Shown piece by piece: positions 10,253 through 21,591 of a stretch of 21,591 bases of DNA. The stretch covers positions 1 through 21,591 of the forward strand of contig JAHQXB010000101.1 in the NCBI GenBank assembly GCA_029856435.1, in the 5' to 3' direction. The DNA is from Candidatus Jordarchaeia archaeon. Its GTDB lineage: Archaea; Asgardarchaeota; Jordiarchaeia; Jordiarchaeales; Jordiarchaeaceae. A model generated the notes under the pieces. It was not told the DNA's origin, did no database searches, and saw nothing but the letters and a program-made list of their open reading frames with translations. Made by a program: the position numbers and the translations under genes. Positions within the stretch are counted from its first letter, which is position 1. Each line of letters starts with the position of its first letter.

Positions 10253-11623
10253 TTAACTCTCTTTGGTGAGGTCTTCGACTCGTTTATACTTGTGGGCAAT
10301 TTTGGGCAAATCGTCTATGGAATCCACTATTTCAATATCGGTTTCGACACCCAGTTTCTCCTTAATAATTCCAGAAACCTTCTCTCTAAACTCCTCTTTA
10401 GTTAAACCTTTGCTTCCATCGTAGACCATCTTCATCTTCAGTTTCTCCATCACGTCCTTCTTATATTTGAAGAGTGTGAAAGGAACACCTGCAGCCTCTG
10501 GCACATCTATAAACAGGTCATCCACATCCAGGGGAAGAATCCACTTACCCATAATATTAAGCTGGAAACCTGTTCGACCAATCCAAGTCGCTCGACCATG
10601 AGTCCTACCACACTTACAAGTTTCCCTGCTGAAGGTGGAAATATCCTCGCTGCCCCACCTGATAAGTGGAGTGCCCCTCATATAAAGATTCGATAGTATC
10701 AACTCGCCCCTCTCATTCTCACCCACAGGCTCCTTGGTATCCAGATCCAGAATCTCAGCCAAATAAAGATCCTCACAAATATGGGTGCCCTCACGTACTT
10801 CACACTCCGCCAAATGAATCATGGTATCCGCCGCTCCGCCGCCACTAAAAATCTTCTCTGGTTCCAGCTCCGCCTCCTTTATTAGCTTTTGCCGATAACT
10901 ATTTGTTAAAACATCTCCATAACCAATTGAAATTGTTCTCAAGCTTTCACATACCTCAGCAGGTTTTTCCCCCACCCTCTTACATGCCTCCAGAAATCCA
11001 TCAAATATGACTATGGGAGCCGCCATAACGTCTGGATGAAGATGTTTAAGTGCATAAACCATTTTGTCCGCATAGTTGGGTAAAGGATACAAAATATTTG
11101 TGATTGATACCACCCCTATTCTTTCTAGTCCTGGGGTGACTCCAAAGATGAATCCGTTCCATCTTACAGGGGGCCAGAAAAGGACGTCTCCCGGCCGGAA
11201 TCCCTGCATCCAAGTTAGCCTAGCGGTTTGCTCTGCAGCGTATTCTTGATTCTCTTTAGTCATAGCATGTATTGAGGGTATTCCCGTGGTGCCTGTTGTA
11301 GAATAAATGGATTTTATGTCTTCAAATGGAATGCATAACAGGCCGCCGAAGGGGTCACCCGCACTTATCAATTCCCTCACTGAATCCTTATAGGTGACTG
11401 GAAATTTGGTGAAATCTTCCAGTGACTTTATGTCTTCTGGTGAAATTCCTATTTTCCTCATTATCCCCCTATAGTATGAGGAGTTGTGATAAATGTTGTT
11501 TAACTGCTTATTTAACCTTTTGAATTGCACCCTCCTCAGATCCTGTCTTGATATAGTCTCAATCGACTCGTTCCAATATTTTCTCCAATCTACCATAAAA
11601 ATCCACCCTGAACATTTGTTCAT
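10253..11623 (-). CDS. Phenylacetate-CoA ligase-like (PaaK/ANL family) acyl-CoA synthetase, substrate unknown
   Basis: P-loop YSTTGTTGIP, GELILSNL...PLIRW, CKCGRT, hinge GR, C-terminal Lys in HKYKRVED. Start is either 11623 (ATGA overlap with the upstream stop) or 11596 (GGGTGG RBS). Confidence 0.88.
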   Translation of the reverse strand: MNKCSGWIFMVDWRKYWNESIETISRQDLRRVQFKRLNKQLNNIYHNSSYYRGIMRKIGISPEDIKSLEDFTKFPVTYKDSVRELISAGDPFGGLLCIPFEDIKSIYSTTGTTGIPSIHAMTKENQEYAAEQTARLTWMQGFRPGDVLFWPPVRWNGFIFGVTPGLERIGVVSITNILYPLPNYADKMVYALKHLHPDVMAAPIVIFDGFLEACKRVGEKPAEVCESLRTISIGYGDVLTNSYRQKLIKEAELEPEKIFSGGGAADTMIHLAECEVREGTHICEDLYLAEILDLDTKEPVGENERGELILSNLYMRGTPLIRWGSEDISTFSRETCKCGRTHGRATWIGRTGFQLNIMGKWILPLDVDDLFIDVPEAAGVPFTLFKYKKDVMEKLKMKMVYDGSKGLTKEEFREKVSGIIKEKLGVETDIEIVDSIDDLPKIAHKYKRVEDLTKES

Positions 11624-12612
11624 AGCTTAATTCTCAGATGGTTTCCTCCACACTTACAGCGCTTTCTGTCCAAAGTTACTTCGTAATCTGTCTGCCACCT
11701 TATCGCTGGTGTGGCCTCCGACCAGAGATTAGTTATTGTCAACTTTCCCCTCTCCCTCTCTGCCACTGGCTCTCCATTACTCAAAGCCTCTATGATGAAC
11801 ATGTCCTCCCATGCATGCAGTCCGTCATGCTCAGGGCACTCCATAGCCAGAAAAGCAGCGTCCTGTACATCCAACATTCTATAAAACTCACTACCCCACT
11901 CACTTTTGTACTCGTTCTGCTTTTCATCCGTAAGCCGCATATCATCCATTAACTCTCTTAGAACAATTATTTCCGGCTGAAAAACGTCTTTAGGCACCTT
12001 TTTTTGGCTCTTTATCCCTTGGGTAACCTGATCAAAGTATGACACCAGAGTGAAGAAAATTCTCGGTTTAAGTTGCTCTCCAAGATAAATGGCTCTAGGA
12101 GTATCAATAAAAACCAGAGAAGCCTCCAAAGGTATATTAATGAACCCTAACCTATCCTGAACCGTTTCCTGAATGGTGAATGCGCTCTCCAGAACCCTCG
12201 GAGTAAGCTCCCAAGACTGGCCAGAAGTCATAACCAAATCCTTAGCGCCAACACCAAGCATTCGGAAAAACCGCATCAACTGTTCCAAAAGAACCCGGCG
12301 ATCATTATAAGTGTACGCAGTGTATAGTGGTTTGCCAGACAACGTGGCCTCATGAGGTAAAATTATATACCATAAAGTATCTATGGGCACACAAAGCCGA
12401 CCACTAAAGGGATCACTGTCACTAAACTTGGATAGAACCTCCTCCTTAGAGGTGACAGGAATCTTCGACAAATCATCCAAACTCTTTACGTCATAAGGCT
12501 TCAACCCGGCATCAGCGAATTTTCTCCTATAAAACTCAGAATAGTTATAAGCATACTTTACCTCTCTCTGCAGTCTCTGCTCCTGAACCCTCTCAATATC
12601 TTCTCTTAGCAT
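11620..12612 (-). CDS. Truncated, motif-degenerate PaaK-like paralogue (N-terminal domain only)
   Basis: PaaK-like framework (YAYNYSEFYRRKF, LSKIPVTSKE, CPEHDGLHAWED, GKLTITNL...PAIRW, CKCG), but the P-loop is replaced by PHEATLSGKP and the ORF stops at the interdomain hinge. ATG 12612 has a GGAG RBS. Confidence 0.8.
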   Translation of the reverse strand: MLREDIERVQEQRLQREVKYAYNYSEFYRRKFADAGLKPYDVKSLDDLSKIPVTSKEEVLSKFSDSDPFSGRLCVPIDTLWYIILPHEATLSGKPLYTAYTYNDRRVLLEQLMRFFRMLGVGAKDLVMTSGQSWELTPRVLESAFTIQETVQDRLGFINIPLEASLVFIDTPRAIYLGEQLKPRIFFTLVSYFDQVTQGIKSQKKVPKDVFQPEIIVLRELMDDMRLTDEKQNEYKSEWGSEFYRMLDVQDAAFLAMECPEHDGLHAWEDMFIIEALSNGEPVAERERGKLTITNLWSEATPAIRWQTDYEVTLDRKRCKCGGNHLRIKL

Positions 12613-12702
12613 TTCTTCTCCTTTAGAAACCAAACCACTCTACTCCTACCCTTTTTTAGAAGTTTTATAGACACATTAGCCTAAATTTAAGTTAAAACAG
12701 TG

Positions 12703-13718: not shown

Positions 13719-14159
13719 TCATATTGGTTTAAAGTACTCAATGTCCAAAATGTTGCCCTCTGGGCTACTCTTGAAAACAGCCTCAACCCGCATGCCAACC
13801 TTCAGCTTCTTGGGGTCGCCCTCCTTAATGATGTGCACAAAGCCAGTATTTGAACCATCCAACTCAATAATTCCATAAGCATAAGGGGGCTTCAACGGCA
13901 TAACTGGCGTCGAATAGTTAACCACCGTGAATCCCTTAACCGTGCCCTGCTTGCCAACTTCGACCCATTCCTCCATTTTCTCAAAACACTCAAAGCAAAC
14001 CATTCTAGGAGGAACATAAACTTTACCACACTTGGAACACTTGACGCCCATAATCCTCTTATTATTACCAATCTCCTGAATAAACCGACCAGCGTAGGCA
14101 CCAGCAACATGCCTATAAGGCACCTTAATCCTACCATGGAAATACTTATCCTCACTCAT
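13719..14159 (-). CDS. DUF35 Zn-ribbon/OB-fold acyl-CoA-binding protein (second copy)
   Basis: KCSKCGKVYVPPRMVCFEC, GTVKGFTVV, PYAYGIIELDG, GMRVEAVF. ATG 14159 follows GGAGGT. Confidence 0.92.
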   Translation of the reverse strand: MSEDKYFHGRIKVPYRHVAGAYAGRFIQEIGNNKRIMGVKCSKCGKVYVPPRMVCFECFEKMEEWVEVGKQGTVKGFTVVNYSTPVMPLKPPYAYGIIELDGSNTGFVHIIKEGDPKKLKVGMRVEAVFKSSPEGNILDIEYFKPI

Positions 14160-14181
14160 AACAAAACCTCCGCTAGACGCC

Positions 14182-14667
14182 TCACTTCTTCTCAACCGCT
14201 CTAAAGTAGGGAATATCCTCTAAAGTACCCTTACGCTCATTCCTAGGCTTAATCACCGCCTTCACCAGCATCCCCGGCTTAACCTTTCCGGGATCCGTCT
14301 CATCAATAAAATGCAACATCCAAGTATCCGTCCCCTTCAACTTAATCGCACCATAACCATACGGAAAAGGCCTAGTCTCACCAGTATTAGGATCCACAAA
14401 AGGGTAATTAACCACCGTAAAACCATCCAGCGAGCCCTCACCGCTCACCTCAACCATGTCATCCACAGTCAACTCCACCATACAGTCTGCACACACAGAC
14501 CTCGGAGGAAATAAAACCTTCCCACACTTCTTACACTTAATCGCCAGTAACTTACCAGACTCCTTAAGCACCCTAAAGAACTTCGATGCAACGGGTCCCA
14601 AAGCGTAACGGTAAGGCAAATCCGTAAGCCAATTTATAGTGAAAGGCTCTTCCTTCTTCTCACTCAT
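14182..14667 (-). CDS. DUF35 Zn-ribbon/OB-fold acyl-CoA-binding protein (first copy)
   Basis: KCKKCGKVLFPPRSVCADC, GFTVVNYPF, PYGYGAIKLKG, GMLVKAV; RBS GAGGTGA. Confidence 0.92.
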   Translation of the reverse strand: MSEKKEEPFTINWLTDLPYRYALGPVASKFFRVLKESGKLLAIKCKKCGKVLFPPRSVCADCMVELTVDDMVEVSGEGSLDGFTVVNYPFVDPNTGETRPFPYGYGAIKLKGTDTWMLHFIDETDPGKVKPGMLVKAVIKPRNERKGTLEDIPYFRAVEKK

Positions 14668-14681
14668 AAAATCACCTCAAA

Positions 14682-15842
14682 CTAAGGCTCCTTACCCAAA
14701 ATCATAAGATCCGCCCAAACACTACCACCGAAACCATGGGCCAACGCCAACTCCACATCAGGAACCTGACGCTTACCACCCAGGCCCCTAACCTGAATCG
14801 CAGCCTCAGCCACTCGAATAAGCGCTGTGGCACCAATAGGATTGGTTGCAATAACACCACCCGAAGGATTCACAGGCAACTCACCACCCATCTCAGTAAC
14901 ACCTTCATCCAACAACTTGCCACCCTGACCATACTCGCAGAAACCCAAAGCCTCAGTCCACATAAGCTCCGCCCAACTACTCGGCTCATAAACCTCAGCC
15001 ACATCCAAATCCTTCAACGGATTCCTAATACCCACCTTCTTGTAAAGCCTCGTAGAAGCAATCTTAGCCGCAGGATACTTATGCATCACATCGTCACCGC
15101 CAAAAGTATAATAGTGCCCAGTGTCCACACCCTTAACCCAAGCCAAATTGTCACTAATCTTTCTAGCCACACGCTCACCCGCATAAACAATCGCACAGGC
15201 ACCCTCACTCTGCGGGCAGCAATCATGGAGTCTTAGGGGCCATGATATTACTGGTGAGTTCATTACTTCCTCTATTGTCATGTTGGGCTGTTGTAGGTGT
15301 GCGAAGGGGTTGTTCGCTGCGTTTCTTCTGTTTTTGACTGTTACTTTTGCGGCTTGTTCGGGTGTTATTCCGAATTCCCACATGTACATGCTGGCCATGA
15401 TGGCGAGGGGTCCTAGTGCTCCGGCTAGGGCGGGTCTTTCCCATCTGGCGTCGAAGGCTGTTACTATTCCGGTTGTGGCCCCTCCTTCGTTTATTTTTTC
15501 CCATCCCACTACTAGGACTTTGTCATACATTCCTGAGGCTACTGCGTAGTATCCGTATAGCGCCAGGGAGGTTCCAGTGGTTCCTCCTGTGGCTACTTTT
15601 ACTACGGGTTTGAGGTATCCGGGTGCGGATTCTATTCCGGTCCACATTTCGGAGAAGTTTATTCCTTCAAAATGGTCCATGTTTCCAATAACGACGGCGT
15701 CTATGTCTTTGGGTGTGAGTTGGGCTTCGTCTAGGGCCATTTTTACTGCTTCATAAACCATTTCAGATATGTTGACGTCTCTTCTCCGGCTTCTGTGTTT
15801 TGTTTGGCCGGTTGCCACAATTGCTACTTTTTGTTTTGCCAT
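14682..15842 (-). CDS. Thiolase-fold (SCP-x type) protein, Ltp3-like, no catalytic Cys
   Basis: KNRRNAANNPFAH, CPQSEGACA, AEVYEP, PVNPSGG, NPIGATALIRVAEAAIQ, AHGFGG. ATGGTTG sits where xNACASG is expected. ATG 15842 follows a GAGGAG RBS. Confidence 0.88.
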   Translation of the reverse strand: MAKQKVAIVATGQTKHRSRRRDVNISEMVYEAVKMALDEAQLTPKDIDAVVIGNMDHFEGINFSEMWTGIESAPGYLKPVVKVATGGTTGTSLALYGYYAVASGMYDKVLVVGWEKINEGGATTGIVTAFDARWERPALAGALGPLAIMASMYMWEFGITPEQAAKVTVKNRRNAANNPFAHLQQPNMTIEEVMNSPVISWPLRLHDCCPQSEGACAIVYAGERVARKISDNLAWVKGVDTGHYYTFGGDDVMHKYPAAKIASTRLYKKVGIRNPLKDLDVAEVYEPSSWAELMWTEALGFCEYGQGGKLLDEGVTEMGGELPVNPSGGVIATNPIGATALIRVAEAAIQVRGLGGKRQVPDVELALAHGFGGSVWADLMILGKEP

Positions 15843-15861
15843 ATTTCTCATCTCCTCATTT

Positions 15862-17004
15862 TTATGCTTCTAGTATGATTACGCAGTTTCCTTGGGAGCA
15901 GATTCCGTTCATTCCGGTGGCTAGTCCCATTTTGGCATCTTTTACTTGCCTTTTTTCAGCTTTGCCCATTAGTTGTAGTGCAATTTCTGCTACGCGGATT
16001 AGTCCATTGGCCATGGAGGGGTTGCTTGAGAGTACACCTCCTGAGGGGTTTACTGGGAAGGTTCCGTTCATTTCTGTTTGTCCGCTGTCGATGAGTTTTC
16101 CCCCTTCACCTTTTTTGCATAGTCCTAGGGCTTCATAATTCATTAGTTCGTGGTAGGTGAATGCTTCAGAGATTTCTGCCACGTCGATTTCCTTCATGGG
16201 GTTTTTTATTCCTGCCATTTTGTAGGCTTCTCTTGCCGCTAGTTCTAGTCCTATGAGGTCGGTCATGTTGCGGTGTCCGAGGTAGTAGGCGTCTGTGCAA
16301 TTGCCGTGTCCCTTGAACCAGACGGGCGTGTCTGTATATTTTTTGGCCTTCTCTCTGTTTGTTAAGAGCATTGCTACTGCTCCATCCGAGAATGGGGGTA
16401 GATCCAGTTCTTTTAGGGGGTAGGCCATCATTTTGGATTTTAGAACTTCATCAACGGTGACTGCTTTTTTCAAGTGTGCGTAGGGATTGTTTAGGGCGTT
16501 TTTGCGGTTTTTTACTGCCACTTTTGCCGCTTGTTCTTGGGTAATTCCATACTTGTGTGAGTACATATTTGCCATTAGACCCGCTGACGAGACTTGATCC
16601 AGTCCCAGCCATCTTTGGTAGTAGGGCTCAAAAATAGAGTTGTTTACAAGGTAAATGTTTGACTCTGAGCACTTGCAGTGTGAAACCACCATCACTGTGT
16701 CATACGTTCCTTCTAGTATTCTCATTACTCCGTAGACATAGGCGAATGCTCCGTCTCCCGATACTCGGGACTCCGATTTTCCCACGGCTCCTAAAGCGTC
16801 CTGAATTGCCATGCTGGCGATTGTTCTCCCGTCGTTGAAATCGTTGGAGCTAGTTATTATGCTTCCCACGTCGTCTTTAGTTATTCCTAGTTCGTCGTAG
16901 AGTTTTTTGACGACTTCGAAAACCAGTTCAGAGTAGGGTAAATCCGCCTTTTCTTCCTCATACTTGGTTTGTGCTACTCCCACAATGGCTACTTCTTTAT
17001 CCAT
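15862..17004 (-). CDS. Thiolase-fold (SCP-x type) protein, Ltp4-like, no catalytic Cys/His
   Basis: LYDELGITKDD, SSNDFNDGR, DALGAVGKSESRVSGDGAFA, KNRKNALNNPYAH, FSDGAVA, AEISEAF, PVNPSGG. Confidence 0.88.
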   Translation of the reverse strand: MDKEVAIVGVAQTKYEEEKADLPYSELVFEVVKKLYDELGITKDDVGSIITSSNDFNDGRTIASMAIQDALGAVGKSESRVSGDGAFAYVYGVMRILEGTYDTVMVVSHCKCSESNIYLVNNSIFEPYYQRWLGLDQVSSAGLMANMYSHKYGITQEQAAKVAVKNRKNALNNPYAHLKKAVTVDEVLKSKMMAYPLKELDLPPFSDGAVAMLLTNREKAKKYTDTPVWFKGHGNCTDAYYLGHRNMTDLIGLELAAREAYKMAGIKNPMKEIDVAEISEAFTYHELMNYEALGLCKKGEGGKLIDSGQTEMNGTFPVNPSGGVLSSNPSMANGLIRVAEIALQLMGKAEKRQVKDAKMGLATGMNGICSQGNCVIILEA

Positions 17005-17643
17005 AATTTAAACCTCTACAAAGGAATTCAATTTATTCAGGCTCTGGAAACCCTACCTGTTTTGATTTTTCAAATAGGGTTTCACCCACGTTGGTTTAAA
17101 TCCAGAAGAGTACAAAACATCCATTCCTTGTTTGAATGCTTATTTTTTTGGCCTTCCGCCTTTGTTTTCCTCCACTCTAAGGTTTAATCAAAAGACTGTT
17201 CGCAGCGTCTTAACGAATTTTGGTCACTATTTTTCGCGGCGCGATTTTCTTGTGGAAGAATCACTGTAGCCACTAACGCCTCACATTTAAAGGGGTAACC
17301 CTTCTTCATATTTGCGCTGCTCTGGATTTCGTTTCTTTGGATTTGTTTTCTTTATAAAACTATCGGCAAAAACTATTCACATAAGGCCTGTGAGTAAGTG
17401 TCGCTTTCTCCTACTACCCTTATTTTTGGCTGGTTATCGCAATGTATTAGTTTTGCTCAGTACAAATGTGGAGAATCTGCATGTTGCCCCTCTTTGCTCC
17501 AAAAATTATAAATATATTGATTATTACTAAAAATGTATTCCCTAGTGGAGAAAAACAGGTTTTCTCTAATTTCAACGATCAACAGCCTTTGAATGGTTGA
17601 AGGTTGTATTACATAGATTGATTCTTAGTTGGAGGTGTTTTTT

Positions 17644-18777
17644 GTGTTGGAGCAGTTGGAAAGAAGGGAGAAGAAGTTTAGGACGCAGTCTAAGGGGAGA
17701 CTAATCGTTTCTGACATGTCTGGTGTAGAGTTGCTGGTGGCTTTTGATGTTTTGTCCAAGATGCGTGATGCGGGTAAGATCCCAGACACGCTCCTATTTG
17801 TTTCTCATGGTAAAGAATCACTGAGTCTAGGTAAGTATGAGGACCTGGATGAGATTAGGTACAAGGCTGTGAGAAGGGACGGCGTGCTGGTGGGGCGGAG
17901 AGAGAGTGGAGCTGGCACCTACTATGCTCCAAAAGGCCAAATCGCGGCGGTACTGGTGACAACCACGGACATATTTCCAAATTTGGAGGAGGCTGAGAGG
18001 ATTTGGGCGGGCGAAATAGTTCTAGAACTCTTCATTAGAGTGGGTGTTCTAGATGCCTATTATAGCCATCCGGGCGACATTCGAAAAGATGACAAAAAAC
18101 TGGGTGGAAGCACTTCCCTAATTTGGGGAAAAGGGGTTGTGGTGGGAACATTCATTAACCGGCTTACTCCCAGCGTTAAGTTCTTCACTGACTATTATGT
18201 TTATCCGGAGGAAAAGCTGAAGGACAAACTGCTGCGCGACGTAACCATGTATGCTGGTAGCATGGAAAAGGACGCACCCAGAACACCCACCGAAGAAGAA
18301 GTAAAGAGCCTCTTGCTAACCATTGTGAAACAGAAACTGGGAATGGACTTCACACCTGGAAACTTCACTGAGGAAGAAAAAGAAATGATTGCGGAGGGCT
18401 TCAAAAAACTCACCGCGGAAGAAGCAGTTACCAGCGTTTCCAAGAGCAGATGGTACAGTAAACTGCCCAACGATTGGAGAGCAGCAACTTTCAGATACAA
18501 GTCGGAAAGAACCATTAACGCCAGCGTAGCCATAGACCAGACCAAAAAGATTAGGGACATCCTCATAACTGGCGACTTTCTACTCTCCCCCCCAGACGGT
18601 CTAGAAAAAGTGGTTAACTCGCTCAAAGGAATATCGGCGGATAACCAGAAAACCATAAGCAACGCCATAGTTGAAGCCTTCAAAAATAACAAAATAGACT
18701 ACACAGGGTTCACACTTGAAGAATTCATAAAAACAATAATAGAAGCAACGAACCTTGCTATGCAACAAAAAACCTGA
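17644..18777 (+). CDS. Lipoate-protein ligase A family protein with fused C-terminal (LplB-like) domain
   Basis: RRESGAGTYY (RRxSGGG equivalent), GDI...KKLGGS with the conserved Lys, and C-terminal ITGDF. Start set at GTG 17644 (or TTG 17647) behind GGAGGTG at 17631-17637. Confidence 0.82.
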   Translation: MLEQLERREKKFRTQSKGRLIVSDMSGVELLVAFDVLSKMRDAGKIPDTLLFVSHGKESLSLGKYEDLDEIRYKAVRRDGVLVGRRESGAGTYYAPKGQIAAVLVTTTDIFPNLEEAERIWAGEIVLELFIRVGVLDAYYSHPGDIRKDDKKLGGSTSLIWGKGVVVGTFINRLTPSVKFFTDYYVYPEEKLKDKLLRDVTMYAGSMEKDAPRTPTEEEVKSLLLTIVKQKLGMDFTPGNFTEEEKEMIAEGFKKLTAEEAVTSVSKSRWYSKLPNDWRAATFRYKSERTINASVAIDQTKKIRDILITGDFLLSPPDGLEKVVNSLKGISADNQKTISNAIVEAFKNNKIDYTGFTLEEFIKTIIEATNLAMQQKT

Positions 18778-19042: not shown

Positions 19043-19933
19043 ATGACTAGGAAAGAAGTGGTTATGAGTGTTAGGGAGGCAGCCTCAATGATAAAGAACG
19101 GCATGACCGTAGGCATTGGGGGCCTCCTAACTGCAAATCACCCCATGGCCATAATTCGCCAAATCATTAAGAACGGTGTAAAAAACCTGACATTGGTAGG
19201 CTCACCCGCAGCGGGACTAGAAATTGACCTAATAATCGGAGCGGGCGTTGCAAAGAAGGTAGCCACTGCTTACGTGGGCGGCGAATCACTCGCACCCATA
19301 GGTCCATTCTTCCAAAAGGCCGTAGTGGACGGCACTATTCAAATGTGGGAGTGTGACGAAGCAATCCTATGCACCGCGCTAAGAGCGGCGGCCGAGGGGC
19401 TACCCTTCCTCCCCTGGCTAGGCGGCGTTGGCACCTGCCTGCCCGACATTAACCCCGACCTGAAATACTTCCAAGACCCTATAAAGGGACAAAAATTGCT
19501 AGCTGTCCCCGCACTGGAACTTGACGTAGCCATACTCCACGCATCATGGAGCGACCCATACGGCAACATACAGTACGTGGGAAACACCTACGCAGACATT
19601 CTAATGGCGAGAGCCTCAAAAAAGTGTATCTTCCAAGTAGAAAAAATAGTTCCCAACGAAGACATAAAGAGAAACCCCCACCTAACAAAGATTTACGGCG
19701 TTGACGCAGTGGTGCCCGCACCCTACGGCTCCCACCCCTTCTCAAGCGATGGATTCTACGACTTAGATAGAGAACACCTCAAAGAATATGTAGAGGCTGC
19801 CAAAGCCCACATAAAGGGAAATCCTGAGCCCTTTAACCAGTACCTCAAAAAATACATCTTTAATCCAGAGTCTCACGAAGAGTATCTTGAAGTAATCGGT
19901 GTAAAGAAACTCCTCTCCCTACACAAATGGTAG
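19043..19933 (+). CDS. Class I CoA-transferase-fold alpha subunit (GctA/IpdA-like)
   Basis: GMTVGIGG, HPMAIIRQI, AAAEGLPFLP, LDVAILHA...DPYGN, VEKIVP, APYGSHP. Confidence 0.88.
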   Translation: MTRKEVVMSVREAASMIKNGMTVGIGGLLTANHPMAIIRQIIKNGVKNLTLVGSPAAGLEIDLIIGAGVAKKVATAYVGGESLAPIGPFFQKAVVDGTIQMWECDEAILCTALRAAAEGLPFLPWLGGVGTCLPDINPDLKYFQDPIKGQKLLAVPALELDVAILHASWSDPYGNIQYVGNTYADILMARASKKCIFQVEKIVPNEDIKRNPHLTKIYGVDAVVPAPYGSHPFSSDGFYDLDREHLKEYVEAAKAHIKGNPEPFNQYLKKYIFNPESHEEYLEVIGVKKLLSLHKW

Positions 19934-19936
19934 AAG

Positions 19937-20731
19937 GTGAAAAAATTGAACAAAAACAAAGATTACTCAATGAGAGAACTTCTAGCCGCTTTCATCTCCC
20001 GAGAAATAAAAGACGGAGAAACAGTACTAATAGGGGCCAACCTACCCGCGTGTCGAGCAGGCGTACTCCTCGCCCACCTAACACACGCGCCAAACATGCG
20101 CTGGCTACAGTTTTACCGAGCTAACTTTTCAGACGTGAAGCAAATAGAAAGTTTTGAATTCGTCACAGACTACTCCGGATTCAAATACTGCGAAGAAGTA
20201 CCAGAATATGAGCACCTCTGGGATACTATAAGAAAGTATGATGTCAGCTTCTTCGGAGGCCTCCAAATAGACAAATACGGAAACATAAACCTACTCGGCA
20301 TTGGCGGACAGTACCCAAAACTAATGTTACGAGGACCAGGCGCCATTGGACAATCAACAATAACAACCTACGTAGGCCGCTACTACATCTACACTGAGAG
20401 GCACCACCCAATGATTTTCGTGGACAAATGCGAGTATATAACCGCCGTAGGCTGGGGAGACGGTGAAAACTCCCGAAAAAAACTAGGCTTACCTGGAGGA
20501 GGCCCCAAATATGTACTAACACCCCTCTGCATAATGGACTTCGAAGAAAAGACCAAGAGAATGCGCCTCAAATCGGTACATCCAGGAGTATCAGTTGAAG
20601 AGGTGAAAAACAACACCGGCTTCCAACTCATAATTCCAGACCAAGTTCCAGAAACAGAACCTCCCACAAAAGAGGAACTCAGAATATTAAGAACTCGAAT
20701 AGACCTGAGGGGAACTCTAAGGGAACTATAA
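19937..20731 (+). CDS. Class I CoA-transferase-fold beta subunit (GctB/IpdB-like), canonical Glu absent
   Basis: EIKDGETVLIG, THAPN, FGGLQIDKYGNIN, GPKYVLT, HPGVSVEEVKNNTGF. True start may be TTG 19946, behind AGGTGA. Confidence 0.88.
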   Translation: MKKLNKNKDYSMRELLAAFISREIKDGETVLIGANLPACRAGVLLAHLTHAPNMRWLQFYRANFSDVKQIESFEFVTDYSGFKYCEEVPEYEHLWDTIRKYDVSFFGGLQIDKYGNINLLGIGGQYPKLMLRGPGAIGQSTITTYVGRYYIYTERHHPMIFVDKCEYITAVGWGDGENSRKKLGLPGGGPKYVLTPLCIMDFEEKTKRMRLKSVHPGVSVEEVKNNTGFQLIIPDQVPETEPPTKEELRILRTRIDLRGTLREL

Positions 20732-20788: not shown

Positions 20789-21591
20789 TTAGTAGTTGAC
20801 TTTGTCTAGTCCTTTTAGTCCCAGCATTTTTCTTGCTTCGTCAGGTGAGGCCACATCTCTCCCCAGTTCATTGACTATCCTAACCATCTTCGCAACCAGA
20901 TCCGCGTTGCTCTTTGCAAGTATGCGTTCCTTCTTCACGGGGTCGTAGCCTACATAAATGTTGTCTTCCATGCCTACCCTTATATGTCCCCCCATTATTG
21001 CCGCCATTGCTCCCAAGTGGAACTCTTGTGGGTATCCTATTCCGATTACCGACCAGGTGAAGTTTTGTGTGCCGAAGAGGCGGCTAGCCTCGTTGTAAAG
21101 GTGCATCAATTCCCAGGGTGTGTTTCCTGTTCCTCCCAGTACTCCTAGAACGAATTGCATGTGTAGGGGGAATTTAAGCCATCCGAAGCGGAGCATAGCA
21201 CCTGCATTCCAGACGCCACTGCTGCTGTAAATCTCAAGTTCCGGTTTAACATCGTTCTCATACATGGTTTTGGCAAACACTTCGAGGTCTGCAAATGAGT
21301 TCTGGAAGATCATTCCCTTACTCCATTCTACTAGGGGCTTTTCCCAGTCAGTTTTCCATTCCTTTATTCTCTCTGCGAGTGGAAACACTGAAAAGTTCAT
21401 TGATTCCACGTTGAAGGAGCACATCTCTGGCTTGAATTCTGGAACCACCGCTATTCTCTGCTGCGCGGTCATTCCTGCTCCTCCTCCGGTTGTGCAGCAG
21501 ACTATTACGTCTGTTTTTGACTTTATTTTTGTTAGGGTCTCTCTCCACACGCCCAGGTCGGCTGTGGGCATGCCGGTTTTGGGGTCTCTTA
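20789..21591 (-). CDS. Beta-keto acid cleavage enzyme family (BKACE/DUF849, Kce-like), 5' end outside the window
   Basis: TTGGG, SMNF, KPELEIY, QFVLGVLGG, GGHIRVGMEDN, SNADLV...ASPDEARKMLGL. The frame stays open to the window edge (RDPKTGMPT), so the HxH motif is presumably upstream. Confidence 0.9.
   Translation of the reverse strand, partial: RDPKTGMPTADLGVWRETLTKIKSKTDVIVCCTTGGGAGMTAQQRIAVVPEFKPEMCSFNVESMNFSVFPLAERIKEWKTDWEKPLVEWSKGMIFQNSFADLEVFAKTMYENDVKPELEIYSSSGVWNAGAMLRFGWLKFPLHMQFVLGVLGGTGNTPWELMHLYNEASRLFGTQNFTWSVIGIGYPQEFHLGAMAAIMGGHIRVGMEDNIYVGYDPVKKERILAKSNADLVAKMVRIVNELGRDVASPDEARKMLGLKGLDKVNY

Follow-up and report, generated by a model that had tools for sequence, protein, structure and literature searches.

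The window analysed here is a 21,591-nucleotide stretch of DNA from a Candidatus Jordarchaeia archaeon (positions 1 to 21,591 of contig JAHQXB010000101.1, assembly GCA_029856435.1, forward strand). It carries a pair of adjacent genes whose products have the fold of class-I CoA-transferases, lack the catalytic glutamate of the beta subunit, and probably form an enzyme that has lost CoA transfer. The two open reading frames on which the original prediction for this DNA was built were confirmed at positions 19043-20731, alpha followed by beta and both intact. The features of the pair are as follows.

19043..19933, + strand: alpha subunit gene, GctA/IpdA-type CoA_trans fold, 296 amino acids, ATG start and TAG stop, PF01144 match of 107.8 bits.
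19346..19363, + strand: alpha motif W102-E-C-D-E-A107 (WECDEA) from the profile alignment, with E106 (19358-19360) as the proposed general base and E103 as a second invariant glutamate.
19937..20731, + strand: beta subunit gene, GctB-like fold without the catalytic glutamate, 264 amino acids, GTG start, PF01144 match of 56 bits.
20084..20125, + strand: beta segment H50-N63 (HAPNMRWLQFYRAN), in the place of GctB APDCHIIVE54SG and without an acidic residue, by phmmer, family profile and ungapped reading.
20192..20194, + strand: beta E86, a family-specific glutamate in the motif R-W-A-E, from the family alignment.
20330..20350, + strand: beta R132-G-P-G-A-I-G138 (RGPGAIG), the glycine-rich thioester-binding loop, from the family alignment.

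The GTG start of the beta gene lies 3 nucleotides past the TAG of the alpha gene, and the median spacing between the two genes across the family is 9 nucleotides. Both are judged functional and under purifying selection because the ratio of nonsynonymous to synonymous substitution rates (dN/dS) against three Freyarchaeial orthologues is about 0.08-0.10 for alpha and for beta. Each subunit matches the Pfam family CoA_trans (PF01144), the beta match being limited to residues 100-225 in its C-terminal half, and the pair has the two-subunit PF01144 fold of class-I (Gct-type) CoA-transferases rather than the single-chain Cat1/AcetylCoA_hydro architecture of ThnP-like proteins. Both subunits score far under the cut-offs of the NCBIfam 3-oxoacid transferase models, and PF02550 matches the alpha N-terminus at 22 bits, under its cut-off. 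The best solved relatives are, in order, GctA/GctB, the glutaconate CoA-transferase of Acidaminococcus fermentans (1poi); IpdA/IpdB, also known as ScdL1L2, which in steroid catabolism hydrolyses ring C of COCHEA-CoA (6co6, 6con; also 6co9, 6coj); and AibA/AibB, the 3-methylglutaconyl-CoA decarboxylase of Myxococcus xanthus (5mzw; series 5mzw-5n03). Family-profile scores against PDB sequences were 189 bits for GctA, 178 for IpdA and 111 for AibA with the alpha subunit, and 149 for GctB (1poi), 66-76 for IpdB and 56 for AibB with the beta subunit. A Foldseek search with the beta model gave TM-scores of 0.76 to 1poi_B, 0.71-0.72 to IpdB (6co9_B 0.72) and 0.68-0.70 to AibB. GctAB is the best overall match in sequence and fold for both subunits, and shares with the pair an alpha C-terminal extension and beta residues R132 and D78. 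IpdAB, with a beta identity of about 19-20% in Foldseek, is not the closest characterised relative for both subunits, and its gene context differs; the suspicion that the pair is no strict IpdAB orthologue was thus well placed.

In GctB, the catalytic Glu54 lies within APDCHIIVESG, a motif that the original prediction had given correctly, as it had IpdA REMDEG and IpdB FGVRG(A/S)PG, when compared with the PDB sequences. Its counterpart in the beta subunit of the window is R61 in the phmmer alignment, Q58 in that of the family profile, and F59 when the sequences are read without gaps. The residue is therefore non-acidic in every alignment used, and none of 121 family members has an acidic residue in columns 58-60 (0/121) while column 61 is Glu in two, in line with the claim that no acidic residue occupies this position. 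The E-[SNGA]-G turn that holds the beta glutamate of class-I transferases is not present either. Ping-pong CoA transfer via glutamyl-CoA is deemed unavailable to the pair because its beta subunit is without the glutamate that forms the covalent intermediate.

The alpha subunit carries a glutamate at a column where GctA has Gln and AibA has Gly. Its WECDEA motif aligns with IpdA REMDEG, as had been proposed, and E106 falls exactly on the glutamate mutated in PDB entry 6coj, in which, compared with 6co6, Ala replaces the second Glu of the IpdA motif. By alignment, E106 appears to be the counterpart of that mutated glutamate, which we take to be Glu105 of IpdA. This Glu105 was reportedly proposed as the catalytic base by Crowe et al. 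in PNAS in 2018. All of 53 alpha-beta pairs compared have Glu at both the E103 and the E106 positions. The window pair and IpdAB have in common a two-subunit class-I fold, the loss of the beta glutamate (Gly57 in IpdB) and an alpha E-x-D-E motif with its second Glu at the E106 column, that is, the combination of an absent beta glutamate with an alpha glutamate at the IpdA Glu105 column.

The remaining active site has been retained to a large extent. Beta residues H47, D78, E86, R132, G135, G138 and H156 are invariant or differ in one of the 121 family sequences, R132 aligns with an Arg of GctB, and G138 aligns, allowing for a 2-residue SEQRES offset, with Gly134B of AibB, whose backbone NH binds the thioester/enolate oxygen (PMC7756340). 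The acyl-CoA-binding apparatus appears to be conserved while the nucleophile has been lost, because the R-G-P-G-x-x-G loop, including G138, and the GG-Q-I-D-x-Y-G-N motif common to GctB are both kept. The original prediction had regarded the Arg of the IpdB G-V-R-G motif as not conserved; this is correct in a strict alignment, where that Arg is unmatched, but the same glycine-rich loop contains, two residues upstream, an invariant arginine, R132 (F-R-G-P-G). The position of this arginine and the family's own invariant beta residues H47, E86 and H156 distinguish the pair from IpdAB.

Among these residues, E86 is kept in 120/121 family sequences, and Glu at this column was found in 66/119 representatives without the canonical beta glutamate versus 1/21 of those that bear it. 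It aligns with Glu83 of AibB (R-S-A-E in AibB) in the family-profile alignment. When the beta subunit was folded alone (pTM 0.80), residues 59-92 had pLDDT values below 50 (about 30), and the equivalent stretch of a natural fused alpha-beta relative, another protein and modelled from another alignment, reached 67-79. The models suggest that this segment, including E86, may pack against the alpha subunit at the interface.

The exchange of glutamates between the subunits extends well beyond the window. The beta subunit has more than 840 relatives at E <1e-5 in a 90%-clustered database, and 2111 representatives below 1e-3, with 127 below 1e-30, in a 50%-clustered library; databases label the family "glutaconate CoA-transferase". 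The canonical beta E-x-G is kept in 21/141 of the nearest alignable representatives, counted over full-length proteins and the beta halves of fusions, and in a tree of 138 representatives the subfamily of the window lies inside a wholly Glu-less clade of 29 tips (support 0.999). Natural alpha-beta fusions (n=8) have Glu at the alpha-106 column in all five cases with a Glu-less beta half and in none of the three that retain the beta glutamate, where the column holds His, Asn and His. Eight GctB-like genes are present in the same genome, and seven of the pairs could be scored: the three canonical pairs combine beta E-x-G with alpha Asn (3/3), and alpha Glu is found in three of the four Glu-less pairs, the window pair included, the fourth (contig C177) having alpha Ile in an AibA-like E-Y-D-I motif. 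The pairs of this genome can accordingly be sorted by motif into three apparent active-site types: canonical, IpdA-like and one AibA-like (C177). The characterised enzymes obey the same rule, with beta Glu and alpha Gln in Gct, beta Gly and alpha Glu in IpdAB, and beta Cys and alpha Gly in AibAB, and the beta and alpha glutamates thus seem to trade places across the superfamily. Besides C177, the GctB-like genes elsewhere in the genome lie on contigs C21 (two), C88, C129, C7 and C38, and the C129 match includes one TAA; mini-introns are reported for this genome. Single-chain alpha-beta fusions of the swapped type occur naturally (L005:17306-18991, P0272, P0141 and others) and would lend themselves well to expression and structural studies.

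Taken together, the pair is most likely a heteromeric enzyme with a class-I CoA-transferase fold that has lost CoA transfer, and the reading preferred here, to which a probability of roughly 0.55 is assigned, is that of a non-covalent hydro-lyase of IpdAB type with an acyl-CoA as its substrate. This reading is supported because IpdAB, with the same arrangement of residues, showed no CoA-transferase activity in vitro (PMC5380842). By homology, the acyl-CoA would still be bound at the alpha/beta interface, and its thioester carbonyl would be polarised by the beta loop R132-G-P-G-x-x-G138. Alpha Glu106 could serve as general base or acid, activating water and carrying a proton to the enolate, in line with the proposal made for IpdAB, so that hydration of an activated C=C bond and/or C-C cleavage beside the beta-oxo group of the CoA ester, of retro-aldol or retro-Claisen type, would follow. 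The activated substrate would be a beta-oxo or 2-enoyl CoA ester. The original prediction of a possible IpdAB-type C-C hydrolase is in part supported, C-C cleavage being one putative course of the reaction. Several points weigh against this interpretation. Overall, the pair stands no further from GctAB than from IpdAB; the glutamate co-variation is drawn from low counts that lack phylogenetic independence; for IpdA Glu105, the sequences compared here show that a Glu-to-Ala variant exists (6coj), its part in catalysis being a reported proposal; beta E86 might itself be the residue that carries out catalysis, or a nucleophile that has moved; and the enoyl-CoA hydratase (ECH), acyl-CoA dehydrogenase (ACAD) and short-chain dehydrogenase/reductase (SDR) genes of the bacterial relatives are missing from the window.

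The genes that surround the pair in the window are listed below in the order of their coordinates.

10253-11623, - strand: PaaK-like acyl-CoA ligase, 456 amino acids, weak Pfam AMP-binding and AMP-binding_C_2 matches.
11620-12633, - strand: open reading frame of 337 amino acids upstream of the ligase, no Pfam match, syntenic in Freyarchaeial loci L001, L002 and L012.
13719-14195, - strand: DUF35 gene (Pfam).
14182-14667, - strand: DUF35 gene (Pfam).
14682-15851, - strand: thiolase-fold gene, SCP-x type (Pfam).
15862-17004, - strand: thiolase-fold gene, SCP-x type (Pfam).
17629..18777, + strand: LplA-like gene, divergent, 265 bp upstream of the alpha gene and on the same strand, Pfam LplA-B_cat 46.9 bits.
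20789..21589, - strand: gene of an enzyme that cleaves beta-keto acids (BKACE), convergent and cut by the window end, Pfam BKACE 234 bits.

The two thiolase-fold and two DUF35 genes (13719..17004, - strand) are transcribed divergently from the LplA-like gene and the pair. Both thiolase-fold proteins are without the nucleophilic Cys (SGDG versus CASG, and TGGTTG versus NNCSTG), its place being taken by Ser/Gly in one and Gly in the other, and judging from these motifs the module resembles Ltp2/ChsH2-type retro-aldolases more than thiolases. The LplA-like protein retains the KKxxG lysine motif and matches archaeal LplA structures weakly (27 bits). Its gene lies directly upstream of alpha in all Freyarchaeial loci (L001, L002 and L010-L012) and was seen in no bacterial locus; in Freyarchaeia, and there alone, it may form part of the operon. 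The 337-residue open reading frame had no match in the bacterial operons. Past the window 3' end, syntenic Freyarchaeial loci go on with another BKACE, 88% identical to the first, and a FadH/BaiCD-type reductase of the Old Yellow Enzyme (OYE) family. In one of them, L012 (10863-15526), the first BKACE is full length, the OYE flavoenzyme has 665 amino acids, and after it come an MtmB-like methyltransferase and a B12-binding protein. The BKACE gene was considered as a clue to the substrate and set aside: its best NCBIfam model, 3,5-dioxohexanoate:acetyl-CoA acetone transferase (triacetate cleavage), scored 269 bits, below the cut-off of 430, with an incomplete gene. More speculatively, the product of the pair might be passed to the neighbouring C-C lyases, namely the Cys-less thiolase-fold/DUF35 proteins and BKACE, and the neighbouring genes suggest that the substrate might be an alicyclic, branched or dicarboxylic acyl-CoA beyond ordinary beta-oxidation.

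The closest relatives of the pair belong to Candidatus Freyarchaeota/Jordarchaeia (95-96% identity), and the next-best sequences, about 53-57% identical, are bacterial wherever the organism is named; they include Rokubacteria, Binatia, Burkholderiales, Acidobacteria and Nocardioides halotolerans, whose strain DSM 19273 (locus L057) is the one cultured carrier that was found. The subfamily appears to be large and, apart from this archaeal lineage, bacterial, and because its next-best sequences are bacterial, a transfer of the gene block from bacteria to Freyarchaeia is suggested. Among 56 loci in which the pair is flanked by 6 kb or more in both directions, the neighbours comprised SDR (39), thiolase-fold (29), ECH (25), DUF35 (23), CoA ligase (18), ACAD (18), BKACE (16), citryl-CoA-lyase-like (CCL-like; 14) and OYE (13) genes, predicted enzymes working at the acyl-CoA level. 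Four recurring operon types were distinguished over 86 loci (A and B, the pair; LIG, ligase; Thl, thiolase-fold; D35, DUF35).

Burkholderiales: LIG SDR A B CCL BKACE SDR.
Acidobacteria and others: ECH Thl Thl D35 D35 ACAD A B OYE ACAD SDR.
Binatia and delta-proteobacteria: D35 Thl ECH / A B SDR SDR, with a break between ECH and A.
Freyarchaeia: the arrangement of the window.

The archaeal and Acidobacterial-type modules are considered to be one orthologous block because identities to the counterparts in Acidobacterial-type operons lie at 41-54% for the thiolase/DUF35 genes and the alpha-beta pair of the archaeon, and at 38% for the OYE. The link to BKACE, on the other hand, is not orthologous across operon types, since the Burkholderiales BKACE is 23% identical to that of the window. 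The CCL-like gene of Burkholderiales clears the cut-off of an NCBIfam citryl-CoA-lyase subfamily. In one operon (L005), a canonical transferase B subunit with the SENG motif occurs together with a pair of the window type and a second, fused, swapped enzyme; the Glu-less enzymes would therefore not be that operon's transferase.

The resemblance to IpdAB extends to the type of neighbour, as the genes of both are found among acyl-CoA ligase, ACAD, ECH, SDR and flavin-reductase genes, and a cluster for HIP degradation in Sterolibacterium has IpdABC-like genes beside a DUF35/SCP-x-thiolase pair, ECH and ACADs (PMC6678751). However, the pair lies outside a steroid cluster and in an anaerobic Asgard archaeon, the window contains none of the steroid C/D-ring (KstR2-type) set of FadD3, IpdC, IpdF, EchA20, FadA6 and FadE30-33, and the gene sets of the bacterial relatives are analogous, not orthologous, to that set. 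GctAB differs in the active site itself, as the pair is without GctB Glu54 (V-E-S-G) and has an invariant Glu106 where GctA has Gln, and no hydroxyglutarate-pathway genes surround the pair.

More specific or different functions are taken here in descending order of probability. A possible but doubtful role is that of a ring-opening hydrolase for 2-oxo- or 6-oxo-cycloalk(en)e-carboxyl-CoA, as a non-homologous stand-in for crotonase-type Oah/BamA or BadI enzymes, which appear to be missing from this genome. A ring hydrolase of Oah/BamA type was not found in the genome, where generic crotonase matches reached at best 117 bits against a cut-off of 464, which is weak evidence from a 97.8%-complete metagenome-assembled genome. 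The genome has about 24 crotonase-fold genes.

An intramolecular CoA-transferase, or "CoA mutase", is an unlikely but coherent proposal, in which the second carboxylate of a dicarboxylic acyl-CoA would form a cyclic anhydride and CoA would re-attack the other carbonyl, no enzyme nucleophile being needed. The precedent is ThnP of anaerobic naphthalene degradation, a family-I CoA-transferase of alicyclic ring degradation without the canonical Glu (Gly238) (PMC11659651). ThnP resembles the pair as a class-I relative that lacks this residue and acts in the breakdown of alicyclic CoA esters, the pair derives from enzymes that bind a C5 dicarboxylate (Gct), and ring-opening pathways yield dicarboxyl-CoAs whose CoA has to be repositioned. 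However, ThnP belongs to the single-chain Cat1 subgroup and not to the Gct-type alpha/beta enzymes, and the alpha-Glu swap is not described for it. Substrate assistance would not require strict co-variation with an IpdA-type alpha glutamate, and several operons already contain family-III CoA-transferase genes, whose products do such jobs elsewhere. Neither this alternative nor the AibAB-like one was raised in the original prediction.

It is improbable that the pair decarboxylates a thioester of the glutaconyl-CoA type (vinylogous beta-carboxy) in the manner of AibAB. AibAB has the same fold, its beta glutamate is absent (Cys56B), and E86 and G138 of the pair correspond to AibB Glu83 and Gly134B. 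In AibB, Cys56 and Glu72 form a proton relay (PMC7756340); the pair has no Cys at the Glu54 column, and its invariant alpha Glu stands where AibA has Gly. AibAB also scores lowest of the three solved relatives, and the window contains none of its biosynthetic context, whether HMG-CoA synthase, a LiuC-type dehydratase or the AibC-type reductase. The C177 pair of the same genome, with alpha E-Y-D-I and a Glu-less beta subunit, is a better fit to the AibAB pattern.

That the pair is still a CoA-transferase, with its nucleophile moved to alpha E106 or beta E86, would fit the strict conservation of carboxylates at two new positions, the apparent packing of the E86 segment at the interface and the database name of the family, yet it is hardly probable: IpdAB showed no transferase activity, the nucleophile-positioning E-x-G turn has been lost, and canonical enzymes are at hand both in the L005 operon and, as three pairs, in this genome. 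A plain acyl-CoA thioesterase, in which the alpha glutamate would activate water and free an acid, for example a beta-keto acid for BKACE, is given little weight. Replacing the catalytic Glu by Asp makes class-I transferases hydrolases (PDB 9cq2, titled "CtfAB E46D active site mutant hydrolase"). The E54D variant of Gct was reportedly turned into a hydrolase in the same way. BKACE needs free beta-keto acids and adjoins the pair in the window and in about 16/56 loci. However, most operons with the pair have a CoA ligase and no BKACE, so that a futile cycle would result, and IpdAB, with the same arrangement of residues, leaves the thioester intact (PMC5380842). Finally, that the pair is no catalyst but serves the thiolase-fold/DUF35 lyase as a scaffold that binds acyl-CoA, or as a pseudo-enzyme with a regulatory role, as might be imagined from the absent canonical residue and the frequent proximity of thiolase-fold and DUF35 genes, is very improbable given the strong conservation of polar residues (alpha E103 and E106; beta H47, D78, E86, R132 and H156), the low dN/dS and the roughly half of loci without a thiolase-fold or DUF35 neighbour.

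The literature on BKACE/DUF849 context (NetSyn), on deoxyribonate catabolism, and on IpdAB, DUF35 and alicyclic topics was not found to describe this subfamily or its operons. The CoA-transferase of the deoxyribonate pathway was considered as a counterpart and rejected as being of an unrelated type. The new elements of the present analysis are the quantified glutamate co-variation in fusions and within-genome paralogues, the operon typology, the coexistence with a transferase in one operon, the orthology of the thiolase/DUF35 module and the ThnP-based alternative.

Taken more broadly, the ring-opening proposal would make the "alpha-Glu" arrangement the mark of a large class of CoA-ester hydro-lyases that has gone unrecognised, with IpdAB as its sole characterised member. 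The analysis yields a two-residue rule for a superfamily of thousands of members, in which beta E-x-G with alpha Asn, His or Gln would indicate a true transferase, and the absence of the beta glutamate with an alpha glutamate an IpdAB-type enzyme. A hydroxyglutarate pathway is named in metabolic reconstructions of Asgard archaea (PMC11291895), and this reading of their genomes would be unsafe wherever it is based on Glu-less genes such as these. One characterised member would assign a chemistry to a conserved, so far unexplained catabolic module of Cys-less thiolase-fold, DUF35, BKACE and OYE proteins found in Acidobacteria, Burkholderiales, Binatia, Rokubacteria and, probably via transfer, Freyarchaeia. 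Should the ring-opening function prove true, the pair, in concert with the lyases of Cys-less thiolase-fold/DUF35 type, the two BKACEs in tandem and the reductase of FadH type, would enable a Freyarchaeial archaeon to ferment alicyclic or aromatic-derived acids.

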